Shown piece after piece: positions 4,701-64,000 of a DNA stretch of 64,000 bases. The stretch comes from Planctomycetota bacterium. Its GTDB lineage: Bacteria; Planctomycetota; MHYJ01; WSZJ01; JACPWG01. The notes beneath the pieces were generated by a model that searched no databases, was not told the DNA's origin, and was given only the letters and a program-made list of their open reading frames with translations. How positions within the stretch are numbered: position 1 is the first letter of the stretch; each line of letters begins with the position of its first letter. The DNA is taken from positions 52,429 to 116,428 of the forward strand of contig JACPWG010000194.1 of assembly GCA_016197205.1 (NCBI GenBank), given 5' to 3'. Both the position numbers and the translations under genes were made by a program.

Positions 4701-6065
4701 CCCGCCCCCGCCGCCGCGCCGCCGGAGGCCGGCCCCCACCCGGCCGGTCCGCGCACGCCGCGCACGGAGGCCGTGCACCGCGCCTCGGCCTGGCTCCGCG
4801 CGGACCCGGAATCCCTGCTCGCGCCCGAGCTGCTGAAGGAACTGGCGCCGACGCTGGAGATCCTCCTGCTCGACCAGGAGGCCGCCGTCGCCGGCCGCCT
4901 CATCGGGCGTCTCGCGGGGAACTTCCTGCACCGCCTCGCCCAGACGCTCGTCGCCACGGCGGAGGCCTACCTCGTGCTGCTCGAGAAGGCGCCGCGCCCC
5001 GTCCGCGACTTCCTCCTCCCGCGCTCGCTCACGAGCGTCGTGGACGCCCTGCGCGGCGAGACGAACGTGCCGGCCTTCGGCAAGCTCGTGGACCTCGCGG
5101 TGGAGCTGACGCGGGAGTTCGTCGCGGACCGGAACTACGAGGCGGCGAAGCGCACGATCTGGGCGATGGGAAAGCAGCGCCAGGGGAAGGACGTCGCGAC
5201 GCCGGAGCTGCGGAAACTCGCCGAGGAAGGGCTGCGGCGGATCGTCGAGGGGGACTCCGGGGACCAGCTCATCCGCGACCTCCGCTCGGTGGAGGAGGCG
5301 ACCCAGTCCCTCGCGGTGCAGGTGATCACGGGCTTCGGCTCGGCGGCCGTCCGCCGGCTCGTGAACGCGATCATGGAGACGGAGGAGTACCCGCTGCGCA
5401 AGGTCTTCGCCATCATCCTGCGCGAAGCGGGGGAGCAGGCCAAGGGGGAGCTGGTCAAGGAGCTGAACCCGTTTGCCCCGAGCGACCGCTACGCGCGCAT
5501 CCTCGAGGTGCTCGACACGGTCTCTACGTCGGTCGAGACGGAAGCGTTGTCGGCCCTCCGGCACCGGGACGAAAAGGTCCGGCGCGAGGCCGTGAACCTC
5601 CTGCGGCGCCTGCCGCGCGACCGGTCCGTGAAGTTGCTCGGCCAGGTCCTCCAGGACGACGACCCCGCGGTGGTGACCTCCGGGGTGATCGTGCTCGGGG
5701 AGCTGCGCTACCGGGAGATGGCCGACTCGCTCGTACGGATCCTGGATCTGGCGAAGGACGAACGGCTGTTGCGGGAGACCTGCGTGGCGGCGGCCAAACT
5801 GAACGACGAGCGGCTGATCCCCGCGCTCGGCCGGGTCCTGTGTCGGACCGGGTTCCTGGGGCTGTGGGGAGGCCTCCAGGAAGGGATGCGCGCGGCCGCG
5901 GCCTGGGCGCTCGGCGAATTCGCCAACCCCGACGCCGTCGCGCTGCTGAACAAGGCGTCGAACGATCGGAGCGCGCAGGTGCGCTCGGCGGCCAAGATGG
6001 GCTTGAGGGCGCGCGGTTCGCCTCTGCCCGTGGGCGATGCCCCTCGGCCGCCGCTGCCCGGCTAG
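1761..6065 (+). CDS. Multidomain signalling protein: N-terminal GGDEF diguanylate-cyclase domain (AGDEF variant with RxxD I-site), STAND/AAA_16 P-loop NTPase, long helical TPR-like region, C-terminal HEAT/PBS-lyase repeats
   Basis: GGDEF domain: LTGLYNRRYF...LLMIDVDHFKEVNDRHGHLAGDRALRAV...RNDDIVVRYAGDEFCVLLP. P-loop NTPase: Walker A GARGIGKT, Walker B LLVMLDEF. C-terminal repeats: EKVRREAVNLLRRLP...LLGQVLQDDDPAVV. Confidence 0.85.
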   Translation: MKGPDLSQEALSRLVFTDDLTGLYNRRYFSQYLTHEVDWEGRRSAGLSLLMIDVDHFKEVNDRHGHLAGDRALRAVGQAIREGVRNDDIVVRYAGDEFCVLLPQAAKSVAVDVGEKIRARLTAVPFRASDGADPHPLSVSIGASTFPEDGRNAEALIEAADKALYCSKRLGRDRVAAAGAIDLELTRELDALRCFPCPRFVGRQAELAAFDDALGVVAAGRNLLLMLRGARGIGKTRLLSEIARSRADATCLLERCSEVDQTVPFKPLLSLLEKQLRRDPREADRVAERIFEEHLAALSEVIPALAAVRARRPLRPTFSPREKRRYVFEGVVNLLWTLSIPRPLLVMLDEFQNLDEGTAQVLECLALLGRGRVLVVGAFAVAEDMGPRLAGSPAGKTLEALGATDRLRQLEVGPLDLAGVTAVIDAILPGRPASPQLDSSLFEASGGNPLYVEEALKALIRLQVVRPSGQGWSIGDATAADLPGSLEAVIQRDLGSLDPETAKVLAEAVVIGPNFGLDLLKDVAGVNEGEALEIVERAKRQRLIGNADGPDEWQFVSSRLHEVTYAAASPSFRKETHRRVGTSHEARHKDNADRVAQALEHHFRLAGELAKATAYAERVAQHAREYFHRTEAAEYKGHIRHLIPECTEPVPEDVLPLCAGVLKGLCTFVKITKMYPPGSQLITQAAEALRRSLGEAFVRVPAFSCSLPKDILLLNTVPLDPVVVGDAVRELQAILREHYILSLTLTHSTDAQEVEELVRGLAKPFDPNVAGPEYWVRFLDEHHIDDIGLVQRAFEVAEEKEHPVALALKEGADRPLDDAQLPVLRDVLRYLSATVSNLRLYPEGSQLITVALDLLAQALDGLFGVHPVLTLSEVESTLLVNGVVANPKALGTVVGECGRILREHQITSLTFVKGVSKQELSKFVQALSEAAREEEGTAGYWEGWFGKQGIFHVAAGVKVYEATEVFRRSLSGEEAAEAPRPAPAAAPPEAGPHPAGPRTPRTEAVHRASAWLRADPESLLAPELLKELAPTLEILLLDQEAAVAGRLIGRLAGNFLHRLAQTLVATAEAYLVLLEKAPRPVRDFLLPRSLTSVVDALRGETNVPAFGKLVDLAVELTREFVADRNYEAAKRTIWAMGKQRQGKDVATPELRKLAEEGLRRIVEGDSGDQLIRDLRSVEEATQSLAVQVITGFGSAAVRRLVNAIMETEEYPLRKVFAIILREAGEQAKGELVKELNPFAPSDRYARILEVLDTVSTSVETEALSALRHRDEKVRREAVNLLRRLPRDRSVKLLGQVLQDDDPAVVTSGVIVLGELRYREMADSLVRILDLAKDERLLRETCVAAAKLNDERLIPALGRVLCRTGFLGLWGGLQEGMRAAAAWALGEFANPDAVALLNKASNDRSAQVRSAAKMGLRARGSPLPVGDAPRPPLPG

Positions 6066-6410
6066 GCGCCGGACGCGGACCTGCGACCCCTCAAACGGCA
6101 CTCGTCTCTGATCGCCGAAGTCTGTTCATTCGCGGAAAGGAAATTTCGGGGCCTGTCCGGAAAGCCTTGTGGCACACGGGGTGGAACCATGACGCGGCGT
6201 GACCTCGACTTGCTTGGTTGCGACTCTGCAGCGTTGGGACCCTACCGGTGAACTTCTTGAAAGCGTGTCCAGATTCGCAGGCGACGAAACCACAAAGACT
6301 CGAAGTCACGAAGACCACAAAGGCGCTTTTCGGCCGAGCCAAACTCGCCCCCCTCAGTGACGGTCCTTCGTGGTCTTCGTGCCTTGGTGGCTTGGTGGTT
6401 TCGTCGTCCC

Positions 6411-6980
6411 ATGAAGATCCACTTGCAACCTGAGCGTTACAACCTGGTCCCGATCTTCACCGGCATGCGGATGGACGAGATCCAGGAAATCCTGGCGATC
6501 ACGGGCGAAGCGAACTACGAACCGGGCGACCGCATCACCGAAGAAGGGGAGGACGGCGACGAGTTCTACATCGTCCTCGAAGGGCGTGTGGAGATCCGCA
6601 AGCGCCTGCCGAGCGGCGACGAGGAGACCATCGCGCTTCTGGAGGCCGGCGCCGTCTTCGGCGAGTCGTGCATCATGGATCACCGCAAGCGCATCTCGAG
6701 CGCGGTGGCCGCCGCCCGCACCGTGCTCTCGACGATCCGCAAAACCGATTTCGAGAACTTCCTTCGCGCCGAGCGGATTTCCGCGTACAAGGTCCTGGAG
6801 AATTTCCTGCGGATCGTGAGCGACCGGCTCCGGAAGATGAATGACATCGTGTCCCGGCTGCTCATCGACATGGAGGAGCGGCAGGAAGTGACGAAGGTCG
6901 TTCGTGCCGACACCGCCGAGCTCCGGCGAAAACTGCTCCAGCACACCCACGCGATGCCGGGGAAGCCCAGCCCGTCGTAA
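6411..6980 (+). CDS. Stand-alone cyclic-nucleotide-binding (cNMP) domain protein without an HTH
   Basis: [49 protein letters not shown] matches the cNMP_binding fold (G..GD.FYII..G.V...FGE). The start was placed at the internal ATG 6411 (MKIHL). Confidence 0.8.
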
Positions 6981-7096
6981 CAACCGCGAGCTCGTCCGCG
7001 CGCCTGGGCGGGAGCGGCGACCGGCGTGCGAGGGGACGAACCGCGAAGTACGCCCCTTGCGCGAGTTTCTTTCCGGCCCGCGGCGAGGAGTCCCGG

Positions 7097-8245
7097 ATGG
7101 GCAGCACGTTCGGCCATCTCTTCCGCGTGACGACCTGGGGGGAGTCGCACGGCGGCGCCGTGGGGTGCACGGTGGACGGCTGCCCGCCCCTCCTGCCGCT
7201 CGCGGAGGCGGACGTGCAGCGGGAGCTGGACCGGCGGCGGCCCGGGCAGAGCCGGCTCACGACGCAGCGCAAGGAAAGCGACACGGCGCGGATCCTCTCG
7301 GGCGTGTTCGAAGGGCGGACGCTCGGCACGCCGATCGAGATCCTCGTGGAGAACGAGGACGCGCGCCCCGAGGCCTATGAGGCGATGAAGGACCTGTACC
7401 GGCCGTCGCACGCCGACTACACGTACGAGGCGAAATACGGGATCCGCAATTGGCAAGGTGGCGGCCGTGCGAGCGCGCGGGAGACGGTGGGCAGGGTCGC
7501 CGCGGGGGCGATCGCCCGGAAACTGCTCGCGCTCGAGTGCGGGATCGAAATCGTCGCGTACGTGAAGCAGGTCCGCGACGTCGTCGCTCAGGTGAATCCC
7601 CTAGGCGCGAAGGCCGCGGCCGTCGAGCGGACCCCGGTGCGTTGCCCGGACGCGGCTGCGGCGGCGCGCATGATCGCCCTCATCGACGAGGTGCGCTCGC
7701 GCGGCGATTCCGTCGGGGGGATCGTCGAGTGCGTGGCGCGCGGCGTGCCGGCCGGCCTCGGCGAACCGGTCTTCGACAAGCTGGAGGCGGACCTGGCGAA
7801 GGCGATGCTGTCGCTGCCCGCCTCGAAGGGCTTCGAGCTCGGGTCGGGTTTCGCGGGCATCCTGCTCACGGGTTCGGAGCACAACGACGCGTTCATCGCG
7901 CGGGCGGGGCGCATCCGGACCCGGACCAACCGCTCGGGCGGGATCCAAGGCGGGATTTCGAACGGCGAGCCGATCGTGCTCCGCGTGGCCTTCAAGCCGA
8001 CCGCGACGATCCTCCAGCCCCAGGAGACCGTGGACCGGCGAGGCCGCCGGGCCGTCCTCGCCGCGCGCGGCCGTCACGACCCCTGCGTCCTTCCGCGCGC
8101 CGTCCCGATCGTCGAGGCGATGGTTGCCCTCGTTCTCGCCGATCACTGGCTCCGGCAGCGGGCCATCCGGCCCGCGCCGCCCGGGCCCTCGCGTCGCCGG
8201 TCGCGCCCAGGCACAGTCCCGAAAGGCCGAGCCCGCCGTTCGTAG
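7097..8245 (+). CDS. aroC: Chorismate synthase
   Basis: [31 protein letters not shown]...[39 protein letters not shown]...[25 protein letters not shown], a canonical AroC signature. It carries a ~30-aa basic C-terminal extension. Confidence 0.95.
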
Positions 8246-8605
8246 TTCCGCCTGCAGGCGGACCGTTGCGCGGCGCGACTCTGGACCCTGGAACCATGGG
8301 TCGGGCAGTGAGTCGGCATTGTGGTGCAGGGCTTCCGCCCTGCACTTGCTCGCGCACGGCAGGTACGAATCGTCTCCCGGAGGTTCCCCAGGAGTTGCGC
8401 CCGCACACTACCGGCTCGGTGACGGCTACCCGGGTTGTCCCGTCGGTACAGGGCGGAAGCCCTGCACCACCAGGACTCCTGGCCGGCGTCGAAGACACCT
8501 GGAGCGTTTGCCCCCTTCCGGGTCGCAGGTTGCAGGGGGCGAGGCTTCGCTCGTCTTCGTCGCCAAGTGGCGGTCGCGGAGGTAGGCCCGGAGCCTGCCA
8601 ACCTC
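8246..8605. other. Structured GC-rich non-coding interval between the convergent genes aroC and the AsmA-like gene. It contains a 14-nt palindrome CCGCCTGCAGGCGG and two perfect inverted copies of a 22-nt hairpin about 115 nt apart. Candidate small element or ncRNA.
   Basis: gtgcagggcTTCCgccctgcac at ~8311 and its exact reverse complement gtacagggcGGAAgccctgcac at ~8448. Both overlapping six-frame ORFs are P/R/G-rich shadow frames. Confidence 0.35.
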
Positions 8606-10855
8606 TCACCGCCGCTCCCTCGGCGGTCGCTCGACCGGCGCGCCGCCGTCGCCGCCGCGCACGCCGAGAAAGCGCCGCATCGGCGAGGTCAGGAGCTTCA
8701 GCGGAACGACCGACGACCGCGGCTCCCCTAGGCTCCCCGTGATCTCCACTTCCAGGAGCTGTCCCTTCACGGTGTCCAGGATTTTCTGGGTGATCGGACC
8801 CAGGATCGGGATCCCCGAGGTCTCCCCGCCGAGCCGTGGCACCAGGTGCAACTCCAGGTCGTCGCCGTCCAGTCGGGAATAGCCGTCGCCGCAGCCGCTC
8901 AGCGCCGGACCGGACAGGAGCACCTCCTTGTAATGGATGCGCTGCCCTTCGAGCGCGAAGTCCACGCGCCCCTCCGTGACGCTCGTGTCCTTGTCCCCGG
9001 CGTTCTGCACCGCGCGCACGAAGGCCGAGATCACGGGGATCGGGTCCGCCTTGCCCCGGCTCAGCCACAAGTACCCTCCGCCTCCCAGCCCCGCCCCGGC
9101 CCTACCGCTCTGCGTGAGCCGGGCCCTCCCTTCGAGCTTCCCGAGCAGCCGCTGGTCGCGCAGCGGCGTCTCGGACGACAGGCGGTCCGCCCCGACGCCC
9201 GCGATTTCGACGGTGACTTCCGACCCAGCGCCCGCGCGGACGCCGACCGTGCCCGAAAGCGTAAGGCGCCCGCCCGCGACGCTCCCCTCGAGCCCCTCGA
9301 GCGAGAGGCCCGCGGGCCCGGAACGCGCCCGCCCCCGGAACTCTTCCACGCGGAGATGGGCCACCTCGCCGCCCCTGCACGGGATGCGCAGGTCCACCAT
9401 GCCGTCACGCACTTCCCATGTGCCTGCAATGGACGCCAGCGTGCCCGGCCAGGAGCGGAACAGGGTGTCCGCAGTGTCTGCACCGGCCGTCGCAACCGCG
9501 CCCCCGCCACCTCCTCCGGACGCGCCCCGGCTGCCCTTGGGCCGGCCGGGCGCACCCCCGAGGTCGCCGAGCGCGAGCGTGAAGCCGACCCCCTCGAGCA
9601 CAAGGCTCCCGAAGGCAGGCTCCGTTTCCGCCGTCGCGCCCGCCGTGACACGACGGCAGGCGATCCCGCGCAATCGGCCGTCCCACTCCGGCGCCGCCTC
9701 CCACGTGACCCCTTCGGCGTGCGTGTCGCCGCCCGATTCCCGCCGAACCGTCTCCGCGTAGCCGGCCCCTTCCGTCCGCCCGCCGGCCTCCAGCACCCGG
9801 ACGCCAAGGTCTCGCACGACCCAAGCCGGCGGCCCACCCGTCGGGCCCGCCGCCAGGGGAGGCGGTGGACCCGTCGAGCCGCCCTGCCCGGTTTCGCCCG
9901 AAGCGCCGCGCGCGGCGTCGGGCTGTACGACGGCGCGGACCCCCACCACCTCCCACTTCGCCATCGTGGGGCCTACCGGAAACGCGCGCCATCGCGCCGA
10001 GGCCACGGAGAGTTCCTTCACGTTCCGGAGCGCACTTTCCCCACCGGCCGCGTCGCCGGCCCCGGCTCCCGGCGCCCCGGAACCTGCGCGGCGCGGGTCG
10101 AATTTCGCTCGCACGAAGTCCGCCATCCATGCCTCTGGATCCGGCCGCTTCCAGGGGCCGGGATGGATCTCGGCCTCGACGGAATCGACTTCAAAGCTCG
10201 CCGCGCCTATCGCGCTGCGTTCCGCAAATTCGAAAGTCACCCCCTCCGCACGCAGCGCGACTCGGTCCCCCTCCGGCGGCTCCGTGCCGTACAACCCGAC
10301 CCCGGCGCGAAGGACCACCCGCGCAGCCGTCGCCCTGCGCAAGCCGCCGGGGCCGTCCCCGCCGGGGAATTCGAGCTCGAGCCCGTCGATCGCGGCCTCG
10401 CGGAGGTCACCGATGCGGAGCGTCCGCATCCGCGCCAGCATCGGCGGCCTTCCGTCCCGACCGCGCTCATGCCGCAACGTGACTCCTTGACCCACCACGA
10501 GGTGCACGTGCGCGGGGGTTTCCCCGCCCGGCCACCGATCGAGATAGGCGGTCGCCGCCTCCGCCCGGAGCTCGAGCTGGGCCATCGAGGGCCCCCAGTG
10601 CAGAACCACCGGCCCAGCCGCCACGCCGCTTCCGCCCACCAGGCCCGGTCGCTCAGCGCGCACCTCCTCCGCGTCCAGCTCCCCGCGGACAATGTCTTCA
10701 AGAGCCACCTGAAAAAGCACCGGCCAGGCGACCCACCCCGCCGCCCACAGGATCGCCGCGCCGGTGAGCAGGCGACGCAAACGGCGGCCGCCGCGGCGCC
10801 GAGCGGGCGCCGGCGCCGAGTCTGGGGGCGGCTTCGGTTCAAGGCTTGATGCCAT
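8606..10855 (-). CDS. AsmA-family outer-membrane assembly protein (N-terminal TM anchor, AsmA-like C-terminal domain)
   Basis: 750-aa ORF with an N-terminal hydrophobic segment (LLTGAAILWAAGWVAWPVLF). The C-terminus (LVPRLGGETSGIPILGPITQKILDTVKGQLLEVEITGSLGEPRSSVVPLK) resembles AsmA/TamB C-terminal motifs. ATG at 10855 preferred; alternative start at 10909. Confidence 0.55.
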   Translation of the reverse strand: MASSLEPKPPPDSAPAPARRRGGRRLRRLLTGAAILWAAGWVAWPVLFQVALEDIVRGELDAEEVRAERPGLVGGSGVAAGPVVLHWGPSMAQLELRAEAATAYLDRWPGGETPAHVHLVVGQGVTLRHERGRDGRPPMLARMRTLRIGDLREAAIDGLELEFPGGDGPGGLRRATAARVVLRAGVGLYGTEPPEGDRVALRAEGVTFEFAERSAIGAASFEVDSVEAEIHPGPWKRPDPEAWMADFVRAKFDPRRAGSGAPGAGAGDAAGGESALRNVKELSVASARWRAFPVGPTMAKWEVVGVRAVVQPDAARGASGETGQGGSTGPPPPLAAGPTGGPPAWVVRDLGVRVLEAGGRTEGAGYAETVRRESGGDTHAEGVTWEAAPEWDGRLRGIACRRVTAGATAETEPAFGSLVLEGVGFTLALGDLGGAPGRPKGSRGASGGGGGGAVATAGADTADTLFRSWPGTLASIAGTWEVRDGMVDLRIPCRGGEVAHLRVEEFRGRARSGPAGLSLEGLEGSVAGGRLTLSGTVGVRAGAGSEVTVEIAGVGADRLSSETPLRDQRLLGKLEGRARLTQSGRAGAGLGGGGYLWLSRGKADPIPVISAFVRAVQNAGDKDTSVTEGRVDFALEGQRIHYKEVLLSGPALSGCGDGYSRLDGDDLELHLVPRLGGETSGIPILGPITQKILDTVKGQLLEVEITGSLGEPRSSVVPLKLLTSPMRRFLGVRGGDGGAPVERPPRERR

Positions 10856-16407: not shown

Positions 16408-16937
16408 GCCCGGGGGCGGGGAAGGGGAGGGGGGCGGGGCGATGCGGGTCGGAGACGGCTCGCGCTACGCATGCTTCGCACCCTGCCTGCCGGCATCCCG
16501 CTATCCTACGGCGGCCATCCCCTTCTCGGCGGCACGAACGAGCCTCAACCCACCAAAGGTCCTCTGCGCCTCTGCGCCTCCGTAGTGAAAAAAGTCAACA
16601 ACCCGAACTGAGGCTAAACTCGACCGACGGCGGCAAATGGCTAGATCATGGCTCCGCCTCCCAGCTAGACGCAGGCGAAATTTGAGATTTGCAATTTGAC
16701 TTTTTGCAATTTGAAATTCGACCCGGCTGCGTGGGGCGAACGCGAGACTTTTACACAGAGACGCGGAGACGCAGAGGCCGGACGCTGAGTCTACCGTCCT
16801 CTACCGGCGATGATCTCTGGCAACGCACGGAGAGATTGGTTTTAGCTTCACTTCGGCTTGTTGAAAAAACCGTTCACTCCCTCTCGCCGTCACCCCACTT
16901 CTCTACCGTCTCCTCCCGACCCACCCCTCACCTCGCT
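16408..16937. repeat. 530-bp convergent intergenic region containing an inverted pair of the dispersed CTCTGCG motif and AT-rich caatttgaaatttga repeats
   Basis: cctctgcgcctctgcgcctcc at ~16560 and its inverted copy acagagacgcggagacgcagagg at ~16728 flank gcaatttgactttttgcaatttgaaattcga. No ORF in any frame has protein-like composition. Confidence 0.4.
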
Positions 16938-19289: not shown

Positions 19290-19683
19290 CCGCCATGCCG
19301 CCCGACCGTCCGCCTGCGGGCGGAACCACGAAAGGCGGCGTCGGCCCACGACAACTGCGGCCGCACTCGGACAACGGGCCACGAGTGGCCTGTTGCCGAG
19401 CTCCAGACACGAGGCCTGGGGGCGCGGGCCTCCCTCCTCCGCTCGCTCGCCGCGAGCTACGGAGCGCAGGCCCGCCCGCGAGAACGGCCCCATGGGTTGC
19501 GACCCGCCGTGGCAGGGTGGACGACGGGGTCCATCGTTCGTCAACGGGCCACGAGTGGCCTGTTGCCGAAGTCCAGATACGATGCCTGGGGGCGCGGGCC
19601 TCCGGCCCGCGCGAACGTCCGCACGGCGTACGACACGCCGTGACAGAGTTGACGACTGTGTCCGAAGTTCGTCAACGGGCCCC
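19290..19683. repeat. Tandem REP-like palindromic repeats (two full units plus a partial one)
   Basis: Unit: gacaacgggccacgagtggcctgttgccgagctccagacacgaggcctgggggcgcgggcctcc, with palindrome GGCCACGAGTGGCC. It repeats at ~19366 and ~19541, with a partial third copy at ~19660. cctgggggcgcgggcctccggcccgcg also occurs at 22540, 26300 and 63930. Confidence 0.6.
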
Positions 19684-20228
19684 TAGACGAACTCCACCGA
19701 GAGCTGGCCGGGCATGAGGTGGAGGTTTTCGTTGAAGACCCGGATCACCGCGACGCGTGACTCGCGACCCGACACCAGCCGGACCCTCGCCGCCCCGTTT
19801 CGAAGCTGCACCATCCAAATCTGCTTTCCTTCCGGATCCGTGAGCAGGCCGCCGTCCGTCCGCAGGTACACCCGGTCGTGGTCCGCGTCGCTCGCGAGCG
19901 AGTTTCCCTCCAGGTCCACCTTCTGGATTAGGATCGACGTGAAACTCTTTCCGTCCGCGCGGATCTCCGGGATGCCGTCCACCGGGTGCTTTCCCGGCGC
20001 GTCGCACGTCAGCACGAGACGCGCCGGCGGCGAGAAGTCCGGGTTCTCCAGGATCTTGCCCTCGACCGGATTCACCCGAAACGCCGCCAGCGGCTTCCGG
20101 CCCGGGTCGAAGTCCGCGACCAGCTTGTCCTGGTCTCCCACCGGCACCATGTACTCCTCGGCCCCCATGCACTGCCGGAGCCCCACGATCTTGCCGGAAC
20201 TCCGCTCGTACAGGATTTCGCTTCGCAT
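19683..20228 (-). CDS. Hypothetical 181-aa beta-rich protein downstream of the fibre genes (candidate fibre-assembly or tip accessory protein)
   Basis: ATG at 20228. No tube (F.VEIDG), PAAR or gp25 motifs were found. The chaperone idea rests on position only. Confidence 0.45.
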   Translation of the reverse strand: MRSEILYERSSGKIVGLRQCMGAEEYMVPVGDQDKLVADFDPGRKPLAAFRVNPVEGKILENPDFSPPARLVLTCDAPGKHPVDGIPEIRADGKSFTSILIQKVDLEGNSLASDADHDRVYLRTDGGLLTDPEGKQIWMVQLRNGAARVRLVSGRESRVAVIRVFNENLHLMPGQLSVEFV

Positions 20229-20431: not shown

Positions 20432-22189
20432 CTACCCCCGCGGCGCCGTCCCCGGCGGCACCCGCCAGAGCTGGATCGTCAAGAGCACCGGGTGCAACGT
20501 AAGCCCGGCGACCGGCGCCCCCGAGGCCGCCGTGGAAAGGGCGGGGCTCGCCCCGCGGATCACCCGCAGCGTGTCCTCTGAGGCCAGCTCCACCGAGTAC
20601 CCGTAGGTCTCGCCGCCGAGGCCGAGCGGGCTCAGGTGCTCGCCCGTCGCCGTCACACGCCGCACGTAGGCCATGATCAGAAGGTCGGTCGTGCGCAGGC
20701 CGTGGAAGAGCGTCATGACCGCGGGCGCGGTCCCCTGCTCGAGTTGCACCCAGCCCGAGCGGAAATCCGGCACCGGGAGCCGGAACTTCACGTCCGTCAG
20801 CCCGCGCACCGTGAGGTTGCCCTCCACGACCACGTCTTCCTTCGCCGTGAACCGCTTCTGCACGCCCAGGTTGCGCCGGACCTCCAGGTCGCCGTGCGTC
20901 GTGACGTCGTCGTACAGCCCGACTTTTCGCCGCGCCCCGTCGGCGCTGTAGTTGCCGACGACCATCAGCTCCTTGTACGCGTCATTGTCGTTCACGATCG
21001 CCGCGCCGCCGGTCGGCTCGGTCGGCGTGATCGGCGACCAGGTCGTGTACCGCGGCAGCACCTTCCGCGTCTGCACGTCCCCCTCCGCCTCCACGTGCCG
21101 CAGCCAGAGGTCGGCCGGATGACCGGCGTCCGCGACCAGGGCGAATTTCTGCTTGTTCGTCAGGATCGTCGCCGCCTGTTGGTTCGGGGAGGCGAGCAGA
21201 TGGAGCGCATCGCGCCCCTCCTGCATCACGCCGCGCTCCCGCAGGTCCACCGTGATTTTTCCCCGGAAAATCGCCTGGTTCTGCACGGACAGGTCTCCTT
21301 GCGTCACCAGCGCCTCGTCAGCCAGGATCGACTTCCCTCGGAAGAGGTCCTTGTCCACGACCACGCGATTCCCGCCCTTGCCGTCGTTCGTGCGGACCAC
21401 GAGGTCGTGCGACGCGGTCCCGCGGTTCTCGTCCGCCGTCTTCGTGACGAGCGAGGAGTCGTTCTCGTTCGCTTCCAGCACCAGCCGGCCGCGCCCGTCC
21501 CCGATCGACCGCCCCACGGTCACCCGCCCGCGCACCGCCGCGTCCCCGGCGAACCGCGCGACCGCCGCGGCGATCCGGAGCTGCGCGGCGTCCGAGGGCG
21601 GCCGCACCTCCTCCGCGACCACGCCCACGTGTTTGCGCGCGCCGTTGTCCGCGTCCACGATTTTTCCGCCGTCCCAGAAGAGCCGGCCCACCGGGACCGG
21701 CCAGCGTCCCTTCTCCGGGTCGTCCGGGAGCGGGTCCGAGGGCTTCGGCGGGTTGGGGAAGGCCGGCTGGTCCCCCAGCAGCAGCCGGTACGTCTCGGTC
21801 CAGCGCGAGAAGGCCTCCGGGTCGGTCCCCGCTCCGGTCACGTTCGCCTGCAGCCGGTGGTAGGTCACCCACACCACGAAGGCGCCTTGTTTTTCGCGGA
21901 AGCCGCGCGCGACGAACTCCATCTCGTCGATGCGGGCCTCCTTGAGCACCAGGATCTCCCGGCCGAAACCGTCGACCGCCATCCCGGGCTCCAGGAAATA
22001 CTGCGGGCCCGCCGCGCCCTCCGCTTTCCGCTTGACGAGCGTGAGGCCGCTCACGATCCCCCAGGTGTGCTCGCCGATCGCATGTCGGCGCCGCATCTCC
22101 ATGTGGTACCGCTGCTCGTCCAGGAGGTCCTCCGGCGTCAGGAGCTGGCGCGCGCGGTAGAACAGGCGTTGCACTTCATCGCCGGGCAT
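20432..22189 (-). CDS. Fibre/receptor-binding-like protein C (585 aa) whose N-terminal ~90 aa are paralogous to the N-terminus of the 22640..25057 protein
   Basis: ATG at 22189, GGAGG Shine-Dalgarno 6 nt upstream. N-terminus LTPEDLLDEQRYHMEMRRRHAIGEHTWGIVSGLTLV...YFLEPGMAVDGFGREILV aligns with LLEVRDFQDEQAYHTGRRWFHAAALHGWGTVAGLWV...VLVEPGLALDGLGREILL of the neighbouring protein. The C-terminal parts are unrelated. Confidence 0.65.
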   Translation of the reverse strand: MPGDEVQRLFYRARQLLTPEDLLDEQRYHMEMRRRHAIGEHTWGIVSGLTLVKRKAEGAAGPQYFLEPGMAVDGFGREILVLKEARIDEMEFVARGFREKQGAFVVWVTYHRLQANVTGAGTDPEAFSRWTETYRLLLGDQPAFPNPPKPSDPLPDDPEKGRWPVPVGRLFWDGGKIVDADNGARKHVGVVAEEVRPPSDAAQLRIAAAVARFAGDAAVRGRVTVGRSIGDGRGRLVLEANENDSSLVTKTADENRGTASHDLVVRTNDGKGGNRVVVDKDLFRGKSILADEALVTQGDLSVQNQAIFRGKITVDLRERGVMQEGRDALHLLASPNQQAATILTNKQKFALVADAGHPADLWLRHVEAEGDVQTRKVLPRYTTWSPITPTEPTGGAAIVNDNDAYKELMVVGNYSADGARRKVGLYDDVTTHGDLEVRRNLGVQKRFTAKEDVVVEGNLTVRGLTDVKFRLPVPDFRSGWVQLEQGTAPAVMTLFHGLRTTDLLIMAYVRRVTATGEHLSPLGLGGETYGYSVELASEDTLRVIRGASPALSTAASGAPVAGLTLHPVLLTIQLWRVPPGTAPRG

Positions 22190-22236
22190 CGTCGCCTCCT
22201 CGGGTTCGTTTGGTGGGTTGCGGCTCCGCCGCGTTA

Positions 22237-22503
22237 GGGCCCGTAAGAAGATAACTTGCTCGTTGGACGCGCAGGGGGGCGACCTGAATTCTCAATGCTC
22301 AATTTTCAAGACTCAGACAAGGCTCAAGGTTCAATTCTCCATGACCACCATGGAACGTAGCCCGGGCAGGGAATTGCGGACTCTGAGCCTTGAACTTTGA
22401 GCCTTGTCTGAAAATTGATCCTTGAGCGTTGAGCCTTTTCCTGAGGAGCTCCCTGGTTTCCGAACTGCAGGAGCTGTTCCTGTACGCGCCCTTAGCGCCC
22501 GCG
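22237..22503 (+). mobile_element. MITE copy 1 (~267 bp, low GC) with terminal inverted repeats GGCCCGTAAG / CTTAGCGCCC and an internal ~45-bp hairpin
   Basis: ctcaatgctcaattttcaagactcagacaaggctcaaggttcaa pairs with ttgaactttgagccttgtctgaaaattgatccttgagcgttgag. The same element occurs at 37510-37756 (same orientation) and 30789-31052 (inverted) at about 90% identity. Confidence 0.65.
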
Positions 22504-22640
22504 CAAGAATTACTTTACATTTTCGTGGATCGACCGATGCCTGGGGGCGCGGGCCTCCGGCCCGCGCAGCGCGGCCCCGAGGGCCGCGCCCCCAGGAGCC
22601 TCGAGGTCCGAGTCTGCGCAGGTATTTTTTCGCGGGCGCT
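22494..22640. repeat. R1-prime: 147-bp direct repeat immediately downstream of the fibre-B stop; its partner R1 is at 26255-26400
   Basis: gcgcccgcgcaagaattactttacattttcgtggatcgaccgatgcctgggggcgcgggcctccggcccgcgcagcgcggccccgagggccgcgcccccaggagcctcgaggtccgagtctgcgcaggtattttttcgcgggcgc. Near identical to the 26255-26400 copy and contains a REP-like 15-bp-stem palindrome. Confidence 0.65.
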
Positions 22641-25057
22641 TAGGTGAGCGTGAACCAGCTTTCGAACGTCCCGCCCGCCGCCCCCGTCCCGGTCCGGTCG
22701 AGCGCGAAGGTCCCGTCCGGGTTCGGGAGGAACCGGGCCGCGGCCTCCACCGGCCGGTTGTTGCGGTCCAGGACCAGGTCCCCCCGCAGAACCAGCAGCA
22801 GGCGGTCTCCGGGCTTCACGAAGTCGCGGTAGTACGTCGACTCCTGCATCACGAGCGCGGCCGAGCGACCGTCCGCGCCGGGCCGGATCATCATCGGCGG
22901 CGAGGGGATCACGAAAAAAAGATACTCGCCTGTCTTCGGGTTGCTCCGCCGGATCCGGAGCTGCAGGGTCTCCTCGCGCAGGCACGCGGTGCGCACCTCG
23001 TGGTCGAAGACGACCTCCAGGCCGCGCAGCAGCTCGGGGCGCGCGATCGTCCCGCCGTGGGTCCAGTTGATGCGGACGATCCGGGTCCCCTCCGCGCCGG
23101 CCGCGGGGCCACCCGCCTGCCCTTCGACAGGCGCAGCCGGCGCCGCCGGCGCCGACGCCGCCGTGGGCGCGCCGGCCGAGGGCGCGAGCGCGGCGGGAAC
23201 GGCAGGTCCGCCGGGCGAGATGCGCGCCGACTCCGGGAAGGGGGCGCCGCGCGTCTGGGTGGACAGGCCCCGGATCGCCTCGGCGAGCACGTCCACCGGC
23301 GGCGCCAGCCGCCGCGCGACCCAGTTGTCGATCCGGTCCACGCCGATGCGCTCGCCGTCCGTGTACCTTGTGATCGCCGCAAGGAGGACCCGCTCCCCGC
23401 CCGCGCGCTCCCGCGGCTTCGCGACGGGCCTGCGCAGCAGGTCCAGCGTCGCCCCCTCTTCGAGCTCCACCAGCGTGACGGCGCCGCTGCCGGCCGCCAC
23501 GCCGCCCGGGTTCGCCACGTAGAGGCTCCGGCCCGTCGGGTCCAACGCAAGCCCCTGCGGGTTCTCGCCGACCTCGACGGCGAAGCCGAGCGCTTCCCCG
23601 CGCCCGGCGACCGCGGCCTCCACGTTGAGCACGCGCACCGAGCCCCGCCCTTCCCCCCCGGCCGCGTCCCCTGTGGCTACGAGCGCCCACTCGCCCGTCG
23701 CCGATACCAGCAGGTCCACCGGGGTCTGGGGGAGCTGCACCGTCGCGGCGCAGGTCGGGCCCGCGGGGGCGTCGAGGGTCCGGAGGTCGAGTATCTGCGC
23801 GCTCCGACCCCCGCGGCAGGTGACGACGAGCCAATGCCCCGCGGGCGTCACCGCGAGCCGGTCCGGTTCGGCGTCCGTCTTCACCTGGGCCGTCTTCGCC
23901 GGTCGCGCGTCCGCGACGGGCGCGGTCAGCCGCGTCGCGTCCAGGATCTCCACGCGGTCGTCCCCGGAGCATGCGACGAAGAGCCGGGCGCCGTCCGGCG
24001 TGAGCGCAAGCCCCCACGGCAGCCGGCCGGTGGGAAAGGCCGCGACCGGCGGCACGCCGCTCGGGCTCCGCGACCCTTGCAGGCTCCAGCAGAGCACCTG
24101 TCCCGTCCCGTCCGGCTCGCCGCGCCGCACGCCGAACAAGTGCCGCCCGTCCGCGCTCAGCCGCAGCGGACCCTTCTGCGCACCGGTCGCTCCGGCCACC
24201 GGAAACTCCGCGACGATCGCACGGTCCCGGCTCCGCTCCAACTCCTCCAGGTCCACTTCGAGGATGCGGTAGGGCGTCGAGGAGGTCTCCCGGGACGTGG
24301 AAATCCAGGCGCGCTTTCCGTCGGTCGAGACCGCCATCGACGCGGGCGCATTCCCGACGCTGATCGACGCGATCGGGGACTGGTTGTCCGCATGGAACAC
24401 GTGGAGCGTGCCCTGCTCCCCGCCGCCCAGGATCAGGAGCCGACGGCGGGACCCCACGAAGACCGCCTGGATCGGCCTGGGCACGACGATGGTGTGGGTC
24501 CACCGCATCCGGATGCGGGAGGGATCCGGCGGCGGCGGGGGAGGGAGCTCCTCCTCTCCCAGCACCTCGAGGGCGAACCCCTCCCGGATGCGATCCGGGG
24601 CGGCCGGCCCCGCGCCGCCCGGCTTGGCGACGCCCGCCGCACCCGCGCCCTGCGGCCTCGCGGCCTCCACCTCGGACTCGGCGTAGCGCGCGGCGATATA
24701 CAGCGTTCGCCCGAGCCCGGGAAACGCCTCCGCCGCTCCCCCCTTCGAGCGCGCGGCCGCGGCCACGTCCACCACCTGTTCCGACGAAAGCAAAATCTCC
24801 CGGCCCAGCCCGTCCAGCGCGAGCCCGGGCTCCACGAGGACCCGTCCGTCCGGTCCTGCCGGATGCGGCTTCACCCACAGCCCCGCGACCGTGCCCCAGC
24901 CGTGCAGGGCCGCGGCGTGGAACCAGCGGCGCCCGGTGTGGTAGGCCTGCTCGTCCTGGAAGTCGCGGACCTCGAGCAGCTTCCCCTTGAAATAGCGGAC
25001 GCGTTCGCCCGCGGCGCCGGGGACGCCGGCCGGTCCCGTTCCCACGCTCTCCGTCAC
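22640..25057 (-). CDS. Fibre/receptor-binding-like protein B (~806 aa): shared N-terminal anchor domain, YVTN/NHL-type beta-propeller repeats, and a C-terminal domain
   Basis: The real start is a GTG at 25057 that overlaps the TGA of the upstream gene (ctGTGAcgg). Upstream of 25057 the six-frame ORF is G/R/P-rich junk. Propeller-like repeats: DGKRAWISTSRE...YRILEVDL, DGRHLFGVRRG, DGARLFVACSGDDRVEILDA, AGHWLVVTCRGGRSAQILDL, RSLYVANPGG. Confidence 0.7.
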   Translation of the reverse strand: MTESVGTGPAGVPGAAGERVRYFKGKLLEVRDFQDEQAYHTGRRWFHAAALHGWGTVAGLWVKPHPAGPDGRVLVEPGLALDGLGREILLSSEQVVDVAAAARSKGGAAEAFPGLGRTLYIAARYAESEVEAARPQGAGAAGVAKPGGAGPAAPDRIREGFALEVLGEEELPPPPPPDPSRIRMRWTHTIVVPRPIQAVFVGSRRRLLILGGGEQGTLHVFHADNQSPIASISVGNAPASMAVSTDGKRAWISTSRETSSTPYRILEVDLEELERSRDRAIVAEFPVAGATGAQKGPLRLSADGRHLFGVRRGEPDGTGQVLCWSLQGSRSPSGVPPVAAFPTGRLPWGLALTPDGARLFVACSGDDRVEILDATRLTAPVADARPAKTAQVKTDAEPDRLAVTPAGHWLVVTCRGGRSAQILDLRTLDAPAGPTCAATVQLPQTPVDLLVSATGEWALVATGDAAGGEGRGSVRVLNVEAAVAGRGEALGFAVEVGENPQGLALDPTGRSLYVANPGGVAAGSGAVTLVELEEGATLDLLRRPVAKPRERAGGERVLLAAITRYTDGERIGVDRIDNWVARRLAPPVDVLAEAIRGLSTQTRGAPFPESARISPGGPAVPAALAPSAGAPTAASAPAAPAAPVEGQAGGPAAGAEGTRIVRINWTHGGTIARPELLRGLEVVFDHEVRTACLREETLQLRIRRSNPKTGEYLFFVIPSPPMMIRPGADGRSAALVMQESTYYRDFVKPGDRLLLVLRGDLVLDRNNRPVEAAARFLPNPDGTFALDRTGTGAAGGTFESWFTLT

Positions 25058-26217: not shown

Positions 26218-26254
26218 GCCTCTGTTCCCTGGAAGAAGGCCGAAGCGGTTCCTC

Positions 26255-26400
26255 GGCGCCCACGCAAGAACCACGTTACATTTTCGTGGATCGACCGATG
26301 CCTGGGGGCGCCGGCCTCCGGCCCGCGCAGCGCGGCCCAGAGGGCCGCGCCCCCAGGAGCCTCGAGGTCCGAGCCTGCGCAGTTATTTTTGCGCGGGCGC
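26255..26400. repeat. R1: 146-bp direct repeat immediately upstream of the gpI-like gene; partner of 22494-22640
   Basis: ggcgcccacgcaagaaccacgttacattttcgtggatcgaccgatgcctgggggcgccggcctccggcccgcgcagcgcggcccagagggccgcgcccccaggagcctcgaggtccgagcctgcgcagttatttttgcgcgggcgc. Confidence 0.65.
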
Positions 26401-26531
26401 TCGGTTGCTAGGGTATTCACCCTACGAACGTTCCTCTGCGTCTCCGCGCCTCCGTGTTTTCGTCTTTCGTCGCCCTTTCGGAGACCGTTCCCGCTTTGTT
26501 TTCCCCGCGCCCCACCCTCCTCCTCGCGTGC

Positions 26532-29830: not shown

Positions 29831-30423
29831 GAGAACTCTCCGGGAGGGGGGAGGTCGAGGACGTCCCCCGGCCGGAGCGCAAGCGGGTCCTCGATGCCGT
29901 TGTGCGCGGCCAGCTCGGGCCAGCGCCGGGGGTCGCGGTACGCCTCGGCGGCGATGCGCGGCAGCGTCTCACCGTCCTTCACCACGTGTCGGCGGCTCCA
30001 GGACCGGCGCTCTTCGAGCGACCCCGGCCGGGCCGACCGGCCGCGCAGCGACAGCCGTACCGTGGCGCGCCGCGGCGTCCCGTCCGCGTCGAAGAGGAGG
30101 ATGCGGGCCGACGAGAGCTCCACGCGTCCGACGAACTCGAGATCGGGTCCCCACGTGAAGCGGCAGAGGGGGCTCCGCCCGTCCGGACCGGCGCCGAGCC
30201 CGGCATGGAAGCGGTCCAGGTCCTCCCGGACGCTCCCCGCGCGCGTCGTGCGGTCAAAAAAAAGTTCGACGACCAGCCGCTCGTTCGCCCGCTCGGACGC
30301 GTGCGGCGCGCGGCGCTCCAGCAGCAGCTCGGGCGGATTGAATTGGACTTCGACCGGGAGGTCGCCGGTATCCAGGTTGGCGAGCGCGGCCTTGGCCAGA
30401 GAGCTCAAACGGGCTCCCTCCAT
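29827..30423 (-). CDS. Tail tube initiator with a C-terminal LysM domain (Afp7/gp53-like)
   Basis: ATG at 30423 (MEGARLSSLAKAALANLDTGDLPVEVQFNPPELLLERR...RLVVELFFD). C-terminal LysM: HVVKDGETLPRIAAEAYRDPRRWPELAAHNGIEDPLALRPGDVLDLP. Confidence 0.7.
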   Translation of the reverse strand: MEGARLSSLAKAALANLDTGDLPVEVQFNPPELLLERRAPHASERANERLVVELFFDRTTRAGSVREDLDRFHAGLGAGPDGRSPLCRFTWGPDLEFVGRVELSSARILLFDADGTPRRATVRLSLRGRSARPGSLEERRSWSRRHVVKDGETLPRIAAEAYRDPRRWPELAAHNGIEDPLALRPGDVLDLPPPGEFS

Positions 30424-30581
30424 GGGTGGGCCGCGCGGTCGAGCCTGCGCTCGAGCGCCTCCTCGTCGGCGGCTTCCAGGAGCGCCGCGCGGACGGCCGC
30501 CTCGACCGCTTCCGCGTCGAGTCCCGCAGGGGTTCCGCCCACGCGCACGCGACTCACAAGTTCCTGCACGATGAGGGGCAT
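30405..30581 (-). CDS. Small (~58 aa) hypothetical protein between tube 2 and the LysM initiator (Afp6-position)
   Basis: MPLIVQELVSRVRVGGTPAGLDAEAVEAAVRAALLEAADEEALERRLDRAAHPWREPV. Overlaps the LysM gene start by 19 nt. Support is weak, with only position and protein-like composition. Confidence 0.25.
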   Translation of the reverse strand: MPLIVQELVSRVRVGGTPAGLDAEAVEAAVRAALLEAADEEALERRLDRAAHPWREPV

Positions 30582-30788
30582 TCGATCCCTTCTCCGTTCG
30601 CGACGATCCAGGGCTTCCCCCGGAACCCATGCGCGGTCAACCCGCGTACACCGGGAGAGACGCCCTCCGGCGCCCCCCTGGCGCGGGAGGGCCGGGCCTT
30701 CGCCCACCGAAGCGGGCTGCGGCCCGCGGAGGCGGCGTGAGGGCGGCGGCACCCGGCTTCGACCTGGGTTGCGGCTCCCCCGTCTTGG

Positions 30789-31052
30789 GGCCCGTGAAGA
30801 AACAACTCACGCAGCTCGGAAACCGGGGAGTTCCTCAGGAAATGGCTCAAGGCCCAATGATCAATTTTCAGGCAAGGCTCAACGTTCAAAGCTCAGAGTC
30901 CGCGATTTCGTGCCCGGGCTACGTTCCGTGGTGGTCATTGAGAATTGAACCTTTGAGCCTTGTCTGAGTCTTGAAAATTGACCATTGAGAATTCTTGTCG
31001 CCTCCCTGCGCGTCAAACGAGCAAGTCATTCTCTTTTTTTGCGGGCCCTTAC
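30789..31052 (-). mobile_element. MITE copy 2 (inverted orientation), inserted directly after tube gene 2; its terminal repeat overlaps the tube-2 stop codon
   Basis: The reverse complement aligns to copy 1 across the internal hairpin (ctcaatggtcaattttcaagactcagacaaggctcaaaggttcaattctcaatgaccacc...). The terminal gcgggcccTTAcgcc includes the TAA of 31049-31051. Confidence 0.6.
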
Positions 31053-31561: not shown

Positions 31562-32044
31562 TTACACCAGCTTCAGGCCTTCGTGGACGATCTCCAGCGA
31601 CTCGATTGCGACTTCGCTCGCGCGCGCGTTCAGCGTCGGCCCTTCCCAGCGGCTCGGCCAGCCCTCCGAGAACTCCCAGCGGAGCGCGGGCTTCCTGCTC
31701 TCGTCGAGGAGGACGATGGCGCCGTTGCGCCGCTCGACCGCGCCGTCCAGCGCCTTCTTCCGCCATTCCCAGAGACCCCGGTCCTGGCTCAGGCCGCGCT
31801 TGAGGACGATGTTGCCGAACCGCCGGAGGCCGGCCAATTTTCGGGGGCTCGCCCCCGGGTCCGTGCCTTCGCGGTATTCCATGACCGTCGTGTCGCTCGT
31901 CAGGCCCGCGCATTCGGTGAAGCCCGCGCGCGTGACGCCATCGATTTCCACGATGAAGTTGAAGCTGCCGTACGGCGCTCCAGCGTGGGCGGGACCTCCC
32001 AGCCCCTGGAGGCTTCCATCCTCACCGGACGCACCTGGTAGCAG
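31562..32044 (-). CDS. Contractile-tail tube protein, T4 gp19 family (tube paralog 1, Afp1-like); start codon unresolved
   Basis: GSFNFIVEIDGVTRAGFTECAGLTSDTTVMEYREGTDPGASPRKLAGLRRFGNIVLKRGLSQDRGLWEWRKKALDGAVERRNGAIVLLDESRKPALRWEFSEGWPSRWEGPTLNARASEVAIESLEIVHEGLKLV. No ATG/GTG/TTG is in frame between the DUF4255 stop (31900) and GSFNF (31969). A CTG at ~32044 or an overlap with the DUF4255 gene is possible. Confidence 0.8.
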   Translation of the reverse strand: MLPGASGEDGSLQGLGGPAHAGAPYGSFNFIVEIDGVTRAGFTECAGLTSDTTVMEYREGTDPGASPRKLAGLRRFGNIVLKRGLSQDRGLWEWRKKALDGAVERRNGAIVLLDESRKPALRWEFSEGWPSRWEGPTLNARASEVAIESLEIVHEGLKLV

Positions 32045-63881: not shown

Positions 63882-63924
63882 CGCTGTCCTCCTCGCGTCG
63901 CGTCGATGAACTCCCGGGACGCTT

Positions 63925-64000
63925 CCTGGGGGCGGGGGCCTCCCGCTTTTGCTCGCTCACCCGCGAGCTACGGAGGGCAGGCCGGCCCGCGCGAGCCTGC
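63925..64000. repeat. REP-like GC palindrome, a further member of the dispersed family
   Basis: cctgggggcgggggcctcccgcttttgctcgctcacccgcgagctacggagggcaggccggcccgcgcgag. Compare 19420 gcctgggggcgcgggcctccctcctccgctcgctcgccgcgagctacggagcgcaggcccgcccgcgaga. Confidence 0.4.

Follow-up and report, generated by a model that had tools for sequence, protein, structure and literature searches.

Three homologous low-GC segments in the 64-kb stretch of DNA from an uncultured planctomycete analyzed here (hereafter, the window) very probably represent a family of MITEs, that is, non-autonomous, non-coding DNA transposons that would depend for their movement on a DDE-type transposase supplied in trans from another part of the genome. 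This family is termed F1 below. Its interpretation as a MITE family had been put forward in the original prediction, and it is sustained by the inverted ends of the elements, by direct 3-nt flanks, by the presence of a sister family (termed D2), and by sites for copies 2 and 3 that are empty in relatives. Bacterial MITEs have been defined as small (about 70-300 bp), non-coding elements with terminal inverted repeats and short target duplications (PMC3733652). The view of F1 as a new family of MITEs, one member of a small superfamily in this genome, is well supported; the kind that it represents is already known, and is ordinary selfish DNA. The current understanding of such systems is not changed by its identification.

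The F1 copies, their ends and their target sites

Counted between the flanking trinucleotides, the three F1 copies are 248-261 nt in length (Table 1), somewhat shorter than the ~270 bp initially proposed. A search with nhmmer, using a profile built from the three copies, recovers them at 22233-22498 (+), 30783-31052 (-) and 37505-37764 (+), with E-values of 1e-93 to 4e-97, and returns no fourth copy in the 64-kb window; no further F1 copy is present in the 1.26 kb that Logan contigs add to the left of the window. The copies align over their whole length at 86-87% pairwise identity (83-93% in sub-blocks), which confirms the predicted homology and full-length alignability of the three segments while lowering the identity of ~90% that had been ascribed to them. 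Their GC content of 0.52-0.54 lies far below the 0.71 of the window, as predicted. The locations at gene joints (fibre B/fibre C, tube 2/initiator and GT4/DUF2520) also stand: copy 1 lies between the stop of an 805-aa beta-propeller 'fibre' gene and the start of a 585-aa gene, copy 2 between the stop of tube gene 2 and a 58-aa ORF that is followed by a LysM/CIS-tube gene, and copy 3 between the GT4 gene and the DUF2520 gene. Coding capacity is absent from F1, with stops in six of six frames, and the joined translations of the F1 consensus in six frames, a peptide query aimed at spurious ORFs called in other F1 copies, finds no match at E <= 1 among 5.8 billion proteins.

Table 1. Positions of the F1 and D2 elements and of associated sequence features in the window; element lengths are those between the flanking trinucleotides.
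Feature	Positions	Strand	Length and GC	Flanks and context
F1 copy 1	22237-22491	+	255 nt, GC 0.53	Flanks TTA 22234-22236 and TTA 22492-22494; upstream of the 585-aa gene (- strand, ATG at 22189)
F1 copy 2	30788-31048	-	261 nt, GC 0.52	Orientation opposite to that of copies 1 and 3; flanks TTA 31049-31051 (the TAA stop of tube gene 2, - strand) and TTG 30785-30787 (CAA on the - strand)
F1 copy 3	37509-37756	+	248 nt, GC 0.54	Flanks TTA 37506-37508 and TTC 37757-37759; within the DUF2520 5' leader, with the GTG start (37503-37501, - strand) 5 nt downstream
D2-1	22495-22639	+	145 nt, GC 0.70	Ends GCGCCCGCGCAAGAATTAC and inverted match; flanks TTA 22492-22494 (shared with F1 copy 1) and TTA 22640-22642 (the TAA stop of the 805-aa gene, - strand)
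D2-2	26256-26400	+	145 nt	Flanks TCG 26253-26255 and TCG 26401-26403
27-nt motif GGTTGCGGCTCCGCCGCGTTAGGGCCC	22216-22242	+		Spans the flank and the first bases of F1 copy 1
Promoter-like TTGACT-17-TAGAAT	37799-37827	-		Upstream of F1 copy 3; conserved in relatives L015 and L016

The predicted terminal inverted repeats do exist in all three copies (14-20 nt, GGGCCCGTAAGAA...), but they are imperfect within each copy. The left ends read GGGCCCG or GAGCCCG, followed by an A-rich stretch of the AAGAA type (TAAGAAGATAAC), and the right ends are an imperfect inverted match to them. In copy 1 the two ends are GGGCCCGTAAGAAG versus GGGCGCGTACAGGAA, the right end being degenerate (GTACAGGAA). An end pattern of the type GSGCCCG(N0-3)AAGAA is matched 20 times in the window, as compared with 4.7 matches expected from shuffles, and nine of these 20 matches are ends of F1 and D2 elements.

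Read in element orientation, the trinucleotides that flank copies 1, 2 and 3 are TTA/TTA, TAA/CAA and TTA/TTC, respectively. As direct repeats they agree at three, two and two of the three positions, and as inverted repeats at two, one and one; a perfect 3-nt duplication is found in only one of the three copies. TTA and TAA together occupy 78 of 63,998 window positions (0.12%), yet, with F1 and D2 elements taken together, six flanks out of ten are TTA or TAA, and one pair reads TCG. The occurrence of TTA/TAA at most F1 flanks cannot be a chance event, and the flanks are read as the mark of insertions that duplicated a 3-nt target of the TWA type. TAA serves as the stop codon in only five of 45 called genes, and two of those five, tube gene 2 and the 805-aa gene, adjoin an element. 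By our own estimate from base composition, each of the two trinucleotides would be expected ~195 times in 64 kb; TTA occurs 35 times and TAA 43 times, which represents a strong depletion.

A transposase acting on these elements would recognize terminal inverted repeats of the GSGCCCG(N0-3)AAGAA type, insert at a 3-nt target, usually TTA or TAA, and duplicate that target. The scarcity of TTA and TAA in a genome of 71% GC would then funnel insertions to few sites; those used would be the TAA stops of tube gene 2 and of the 805-aa gene, a TAA that closely precedes a start codon (copy 3), and the TTA duplicate of a previous insertion (D2-1, adjoining copy 1). The window offers a clear case of how a shortage of targets at very high GC content could direct new insertions towards stop codons and places of previous insertion.

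The 3-nt TWA duplication suggests a transposase of an IS5 or PIF-Harbinger-like type. A preference for TWA targets is characteristic of IS1031/IS427, and F1 is like IS5 elements (of the IS1031/IS427/ISL2 groups), PIF/Harbinger elements and Tourist-type MITEs in its 3-nt duplication, and may be like them in its putative TWA target. The F1 ends, which begin GGG/GAG/GGCC, may likewise resemble those of IS1031/IS427 and Tourist elements. Unlike IS5/Harbinger elements, one D2 copy carries a TCG duplication in place of TWA; this duplication, and the fact that just one of the three F1 duplications is perfect, count against the MITE reading. In canonical Harbinger elements the target duplication is of 3 bp, and IS5 is the prokaryotic family related to them (PMC12730594). 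Of a cognate transposase (IS630/Tc1 or IS5), as had been envisaged, the 64-kb window shows no sign: a Pfam scan of window proteins detects no transposase or recombinase, nor has any insertion sequence been found whose ends match those of F1, and this absence too counts against the MITE reading.

Among known bacterial MITEs, F1 is comparable to the Correia/NEMIS elements of Neisseria, the ERIC elements of Yersinia and other enterobacteria, the RUP elements of Streptococcus pneumoniae and the Nezha elements of cyanobacteria, all of which are short, non-coding and intergenic, with inverted ends, short target duplications and the capacity to form a hairpin, and which are often co-transcribed with neighboring genes. 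Unlike those elements, F1 has no sequence similarity to any collection searched, pairs along its whole length, and has a GC content ~18 points below that of its host; its duplication is also of 3 nt, whereas that of Correia and RUP elements is TA. The present analysis adds to the Planctomycetes a MITE superfamily of several families with GSGCCCG...AAGAA ends and a 3-nt duplication, a group for which a limited literature search turned up no description of MITEs.

Sister elements, empty sites and age

The two D2 elements, with a GC content of 70%, are 96% identical over 125 nt and 93% identical over 151 nt, and the pair looks younger than the F1 copies. The D2 interior, a 57-nt GC-rich palindrome, is unlike that of F1, but the ends (GCGCCCGCGCAAGAATTAC) are of the F1 type, and both elements have perfect 3-nt direct flanks, TTA/TTA in one case and TCG/TCG in the other. 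The combination of two interiors with common ends and the same duplication is as expected of one transposase serving several MITE families. D2-1 abuts F1 copy 1, such that a single TTA is common to both; a tandem insertion at a regenerated TTA would be natural with targets as scarce as these.

Other repeats in the window resemble these elements in part. At 19362-19685, a unit of about 170 nt is repeated in tandem; its ends read GGCCYGTTGMCGAA and ...TTCGTCAACGGGCC(C), and TAG comes next. A block, CCTGGGGGCGCGGGCCTCC, is common to these units, to the D2 family and to the right edge of the window (63882-63952), and the repeats at 19362-19685 and 63882-63952 probably constitute a third related element family.

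The 27-nt motif GGTTGCGGCTCCGCCGCGTTAGGGCCC, sought with up to five mismatches, occurs at only three sites in the window, all of them on the + strand: 6216-6242, beside an unrelated hairpin, 22216-22242, beside F1 copy 1, and 30767-30793, beside F1 copy 2. It is found on the same window side of copies 1 and 2 despite their inversion relative to one another, a placement that simple insertion would not predict. The motif may be a preferred target context, or the end of another element. Its candidacy as a longer terminal repeat was rejected, as the inverted mate that was sought yielded only a weak 10-nt match.

Comparison with relatives indicates that the elements arrived by insertion, as predicted, and are not conserved syntenic sequence. 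The copy 2 site is empty in L014 (GCA_016220045.1), which has the same gene order at this locus and a LysM/CIS-tube protein of 60% amino-acid identity; the distance from tube gene 2 to the 58-aa ORF is 51 nt in this relative, whereas the window has 467 nt there. Two other relatives, L015 and L016, whose DUF2520 proteins are 74% and 62% identical, respectively, have an empty site in place of copy 3. In both, the DUF2520 gene is preceded by TTGACW-17-TAGAAT and a ~40-nt leader before GTG CCC GAC; the window has the same promoter, followed by 42 nt of leader, the 248-nt element, TAACC, and GTG CCC GAC. The same GTG start is given in the NCBI annotation of this gene (P0050, 314 aa, 100% identical). 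The conserved promoter upstream places copy 3 inside a transcribed leader, and from this alignment of leaders copy 3 is read as an insertion into conserved sequence that separates the GAGGAGAG stretch from the start codon. No F1-like sequence was detected by nhmmer at any relative locus compared. These relatives are distant (60-74% protein identity), and their empty sites show absence rather than recent gain; copy 1 had no comparable locus.

A more elaborate version of the insertion model, which we regard as rather doubtful, holds that TWA-targeting MITEs were funnelled to TAA stops, start-codon sites and their own duplications and are tolerated there by folding out, with the fold of copy 3 bringing the Shine-Dalgarno-like GAGGAGAG near the GTG as a split ribosome-binding site. 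A loop-out that restores the ribosome-binding site at copy 3 is not supported by the minimum-energy fold of the leader, in which the outermost stem of the element is unformed. Copy 3 nevertheless places 248 nt between a ribosome-binding-like sequence and a start codon, where an effect on translation would be measurable. F1 may also have an effect on host transcripts.

The junctions of F1 with its surroundings were compared with Logan contigs from an independent assembly (run SRR12113391), which match the window at 100% identity, or at 99.8% in one case (L001). Contigs extend into copy 2 by 66 nt on one side and by 104 nt on the other (L001 and L018) and 44 nt into copy 1 from the side of the 585-aa gene (L019), and then stop. 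Three F1 junctions, both of copy 2 and one of copy 1, are thus confirmed by independent contigs and are not artefacts of MAG assembly. Contig breaks inside F1 are expected of a repeated hairpin, and F1 explains the short-read assembly breaks of this organism at these points. For purposes of annotation, the elements should be labelled as relics of mobile elements, and not as regulatory RNAs or contractile-injection-system genes.

Copies beyond the window were sought with TCAATTTTCAAGACTCAGA, a 19-mer that is invariant in all three F1 copies, as an exact-word query. Its six matches in 185,579 GTDB species-representative genomes and six in JGI metagenomes were all dismissed as chance matches, extending over 20-50 nt by nhmmer, and the scan of IMG/VR gave no match. 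Since these matches are due to chance only, the source MAG appears to be absent from the scanned collections. A blastn search of plasmids with copy 1 and D2-1 likewise returned no match. That only the three copies in the window are known counts against the MITE reading.

The age of the family departs from what was originally predicted. Copies 1, 2 and 3 carry 16, 10 and 13 private substitutions, respectively, in a star-like pattern with about equal distances. The ~13% divergence and the 10-16 private substitutions in each copy, the decay of two of the three duplications and the uncompensated mismatches in the stem all speak against recent mobility. The pattern of substitutions, the decayed duplications and the degenerate right end of copy 1 point instead to a single old burst, after which the copies would have decayed neutrally. 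A GC-ward mutation bias in F1 was set aside, the rates of 0.157 per AT site (AT-to-GC) and 0.108 per GC site (GC-to-AT) representing a small difference. The suggested enrichment in the CIS-like island is not upheld either: by our own calculation, three copies within 15.5 kb of 64 kb would arise by chance ~15% of the time. Copy 3, moreover, is not part of the CIS cluster, but occupies the leader of a DUF2520/shikimate-kinase operon.

Hairpin folding and alternative explanations

Each F1 copy pairs end to end into one long imperfect hairpin, in agreement with the predicted fold. Copy 1 folds at -117.7 kcal/mol (z = -6.8), with no shuffle as stable, and its opposite strand at -106.1 kcal/mol (z = -4.5). 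The inner inverted repeat has 49-nt arms with 80% complementarity; the long hairpin that had been described is therefore present, but its description as a near-perfect repeat of ~45 bp is not accurate. Judged from the three copies, the hairpin is best understood as a property of the palindromic build of the element and not as a conserved RNA structure.

Correia and ERIC elements have been reported to act as attenuators, RNase III sites or mRNA stabilizers. It is unlikely, in our assessment, that F1 is likewise a functional RNA or DNA structure under selection, placed between sub-operons to attenuate transcription, to be processed by RNase III or to stabilize the mRNA. All three copies do lie within transcription units or leaders on the - strand, and a stem of ~89 pairs, with the z-scores given above, can form on either strand and might plausibly be cut by an RNase specific for double strands. 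However, compensatory changes are found in none of the 89 predicted pairs (a comparison of three copies, with low power), 22 of them have lost their pairing in one copy, and covariation contributes an unfavorable term (+5.45). In element orientation, the more stable strand is the forward one in copy 1 and the reverse one in copies 2 and 3, which does not track host transcription; stability of the fold thus shows no consistent preference for the transcribed strand. No terminator-like site is found in or at any F1 copy, and no promoter-like site inside or at the elements; the T/A runs of F1 lie inside the terminal repeats, not 3' of the stem. Rfam gives no match to the F1 elements, either at the gathering score or at E <= 1, and relatives have the same gene junctions without the element. 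F1 would thus not be a conserved RNA, because it combines the lack of an Rfam match and of compensatory change with an inconsistent strand preference. The regulatory role suggested in the original prediction, as an attenuator or RNA-processing site, is not supported. Any side effect of F1 on transcripts would be a consequence of insertion, and not the reason for its sequence.

It is highly improbable that F1 represents REPIN- or REP-like palindromes, spread by a RAYT-type (HUH tyrosine) or IS200/IS605-type enzyme acting on single-stranded hairpins. The likeness to REPINs and REP-BIME is real insofar as the whole element is a long imperfect palindrome, is intergenic, and takes part in a mosaic arrangement (D2-1 beside copy 1, and the tandem units at 19362-19685), and REP families have been reported in Planctomycetes (PMC3733652). 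REPs, however, measure 20-40 bp, and one end of the palindrome is tagged with GTAG or CGTC (PMC3733652); F1, at 248-261 nt, lacks such a tag, its flanks reading GTTAG and GTAAG, and is bordered by 3-nt direct repeats. The window contains no gene for a RAYT or Y1 transposase. HUH enzymes are not known to make 3-nt direct repeats, nor are REPs known to be flanked by target-site duplications. Finally, it is scarcely credible that the F1 copies are invertons, that is, invertible promoter switches whose inverted repeats would be acted on by a site-specific invertase and whose two orientations would be ON and OFF states before surface-structure genes: short inverted repeats do surround a segment of ~250 nt, and both orientations occur, upstream of tail-fibre, CIS and polysaccharide-adjacent genes, but those repeats are degenerate within a copy, no promoter-like site is internal to the element, copy 3 lies downstream of a conserved promoter, no recombinase is present in the window, and neither direct 3-nt flanks nor insertion relative to relatives would be expected of an inverton.

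Gene neighborhood and other repeats in the window

Most called genes between 16.9 and 64 kb lie on the - strand. Window proteins are identical to NCBI entries MBI3273447 and MBI3273455, and to MBI3273453 apart from its start-codon residue. From ~32.5 to 16.9 kb, the genes encode a Pvc16-type cap protein, two gp19-type tube proteins, the product of the 58-aa ORF, a LysM/CIS-tube protein, a 286-aa protein, gp25 and baseplate J, and then a P2-gpI-like protein, the 805-aa beta-propeller protein, and proteins of 585, 181 and 770 aa. To the right of this cluster are genes for an amidohydrolase, DUF2851, shikimate kinase and DUF2520, and a large polysaccharide cluster; to its left are housekeeping genes, including rpsB, pyrH, frr and the chorismate synthase gene.

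The CIS-like cluster proper (19-33 kb) comprises cap, two tube, tube-initiator, gp25, baseplate J and gpI-like genes, and among the window proteins scanned Pfam returns no match to a sheath, tape-measure or AAA ATPase in this cluster. In L015, whose region at 5855-10394 was compared with window 16.9-32.6 kb, the amidohydrolase gene directly precedes an ortholog (55-63% identity) of the gene for the 805-aa beta-propeller protein, and frr comes next. The L015 locus is without the CIS core genes (26.3-32.6 kb) and without the genes for the 585-, 181- and 770-aa proteins (16.9-22.2 kb), which makes the CIS cluster an island that is present in some relatives and absent from others.

At 31976-31981, the window is without ~105 nt that are seen in Logan contig L001 (3610-3714) from the same run. 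The missing stretch is bounded by direct repeats (GGAGCG); with it go the Pvc16-like stop codon, the start codon of tube gene 1 and the spacer that separates them. It reflects either an error of MAG assembly or a real deletion variant. The 58-aa ORF between tube gene 2 and the LysM/CIS-tube gene (30405-30581, -; MPLIVQELVSRVRVGG...) is conserved, being found also in L014, and matches no Pfam family.

Several further repeats are found in the window. A hairpin at 6282-6406, with 42-nt arms that are 86% complementary and 8-nt periodic units (NCACRAAG), ends 4 nt before the ATG of a gene for a cNMP-binding-domain protein, and Logan contig L017 stops inside it. A low-GC hairpin of CACAGATT units lies at 35689-35778, in the spacer that separates the gene for shikimate kinase from that for DUF2851; the corresponding spacers of L015 contain GCAGATYG / CAATCTRC arrays. 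Arrays of the octamer CTCTGCGY give 10 matches in the window (at 16562, 16762, 26434, 32685, 35565, 35803, 42210, 42218, 51150 and 51158) against 0.18 expected, and the octamer is present also at the left end of L017. Most of these matches fall in intergenic gaps of a rough gene map, those at 42210 and 42218 being within a called ORF whose start is perhaps over-extended, and several of the arrays lie upstream of promoter-like sites. Relatives have other octamer arrays at equivalent intergenic places (L014, 1349-1685; L015, 4265-4445 and 7031-7144).

Lastly, the N-terminal ~70 residues of the 585-aa protein (21926-22129, -) resemble the N-terminus of the beta-propeller family (22640-25057, -), with 46% identity to residues 31-96 of the 787-aa protein of L015. 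This similarity suggests that the two fibre-like proteins, of the 585-aa and beta-propeller types, may have a common attachment domain.
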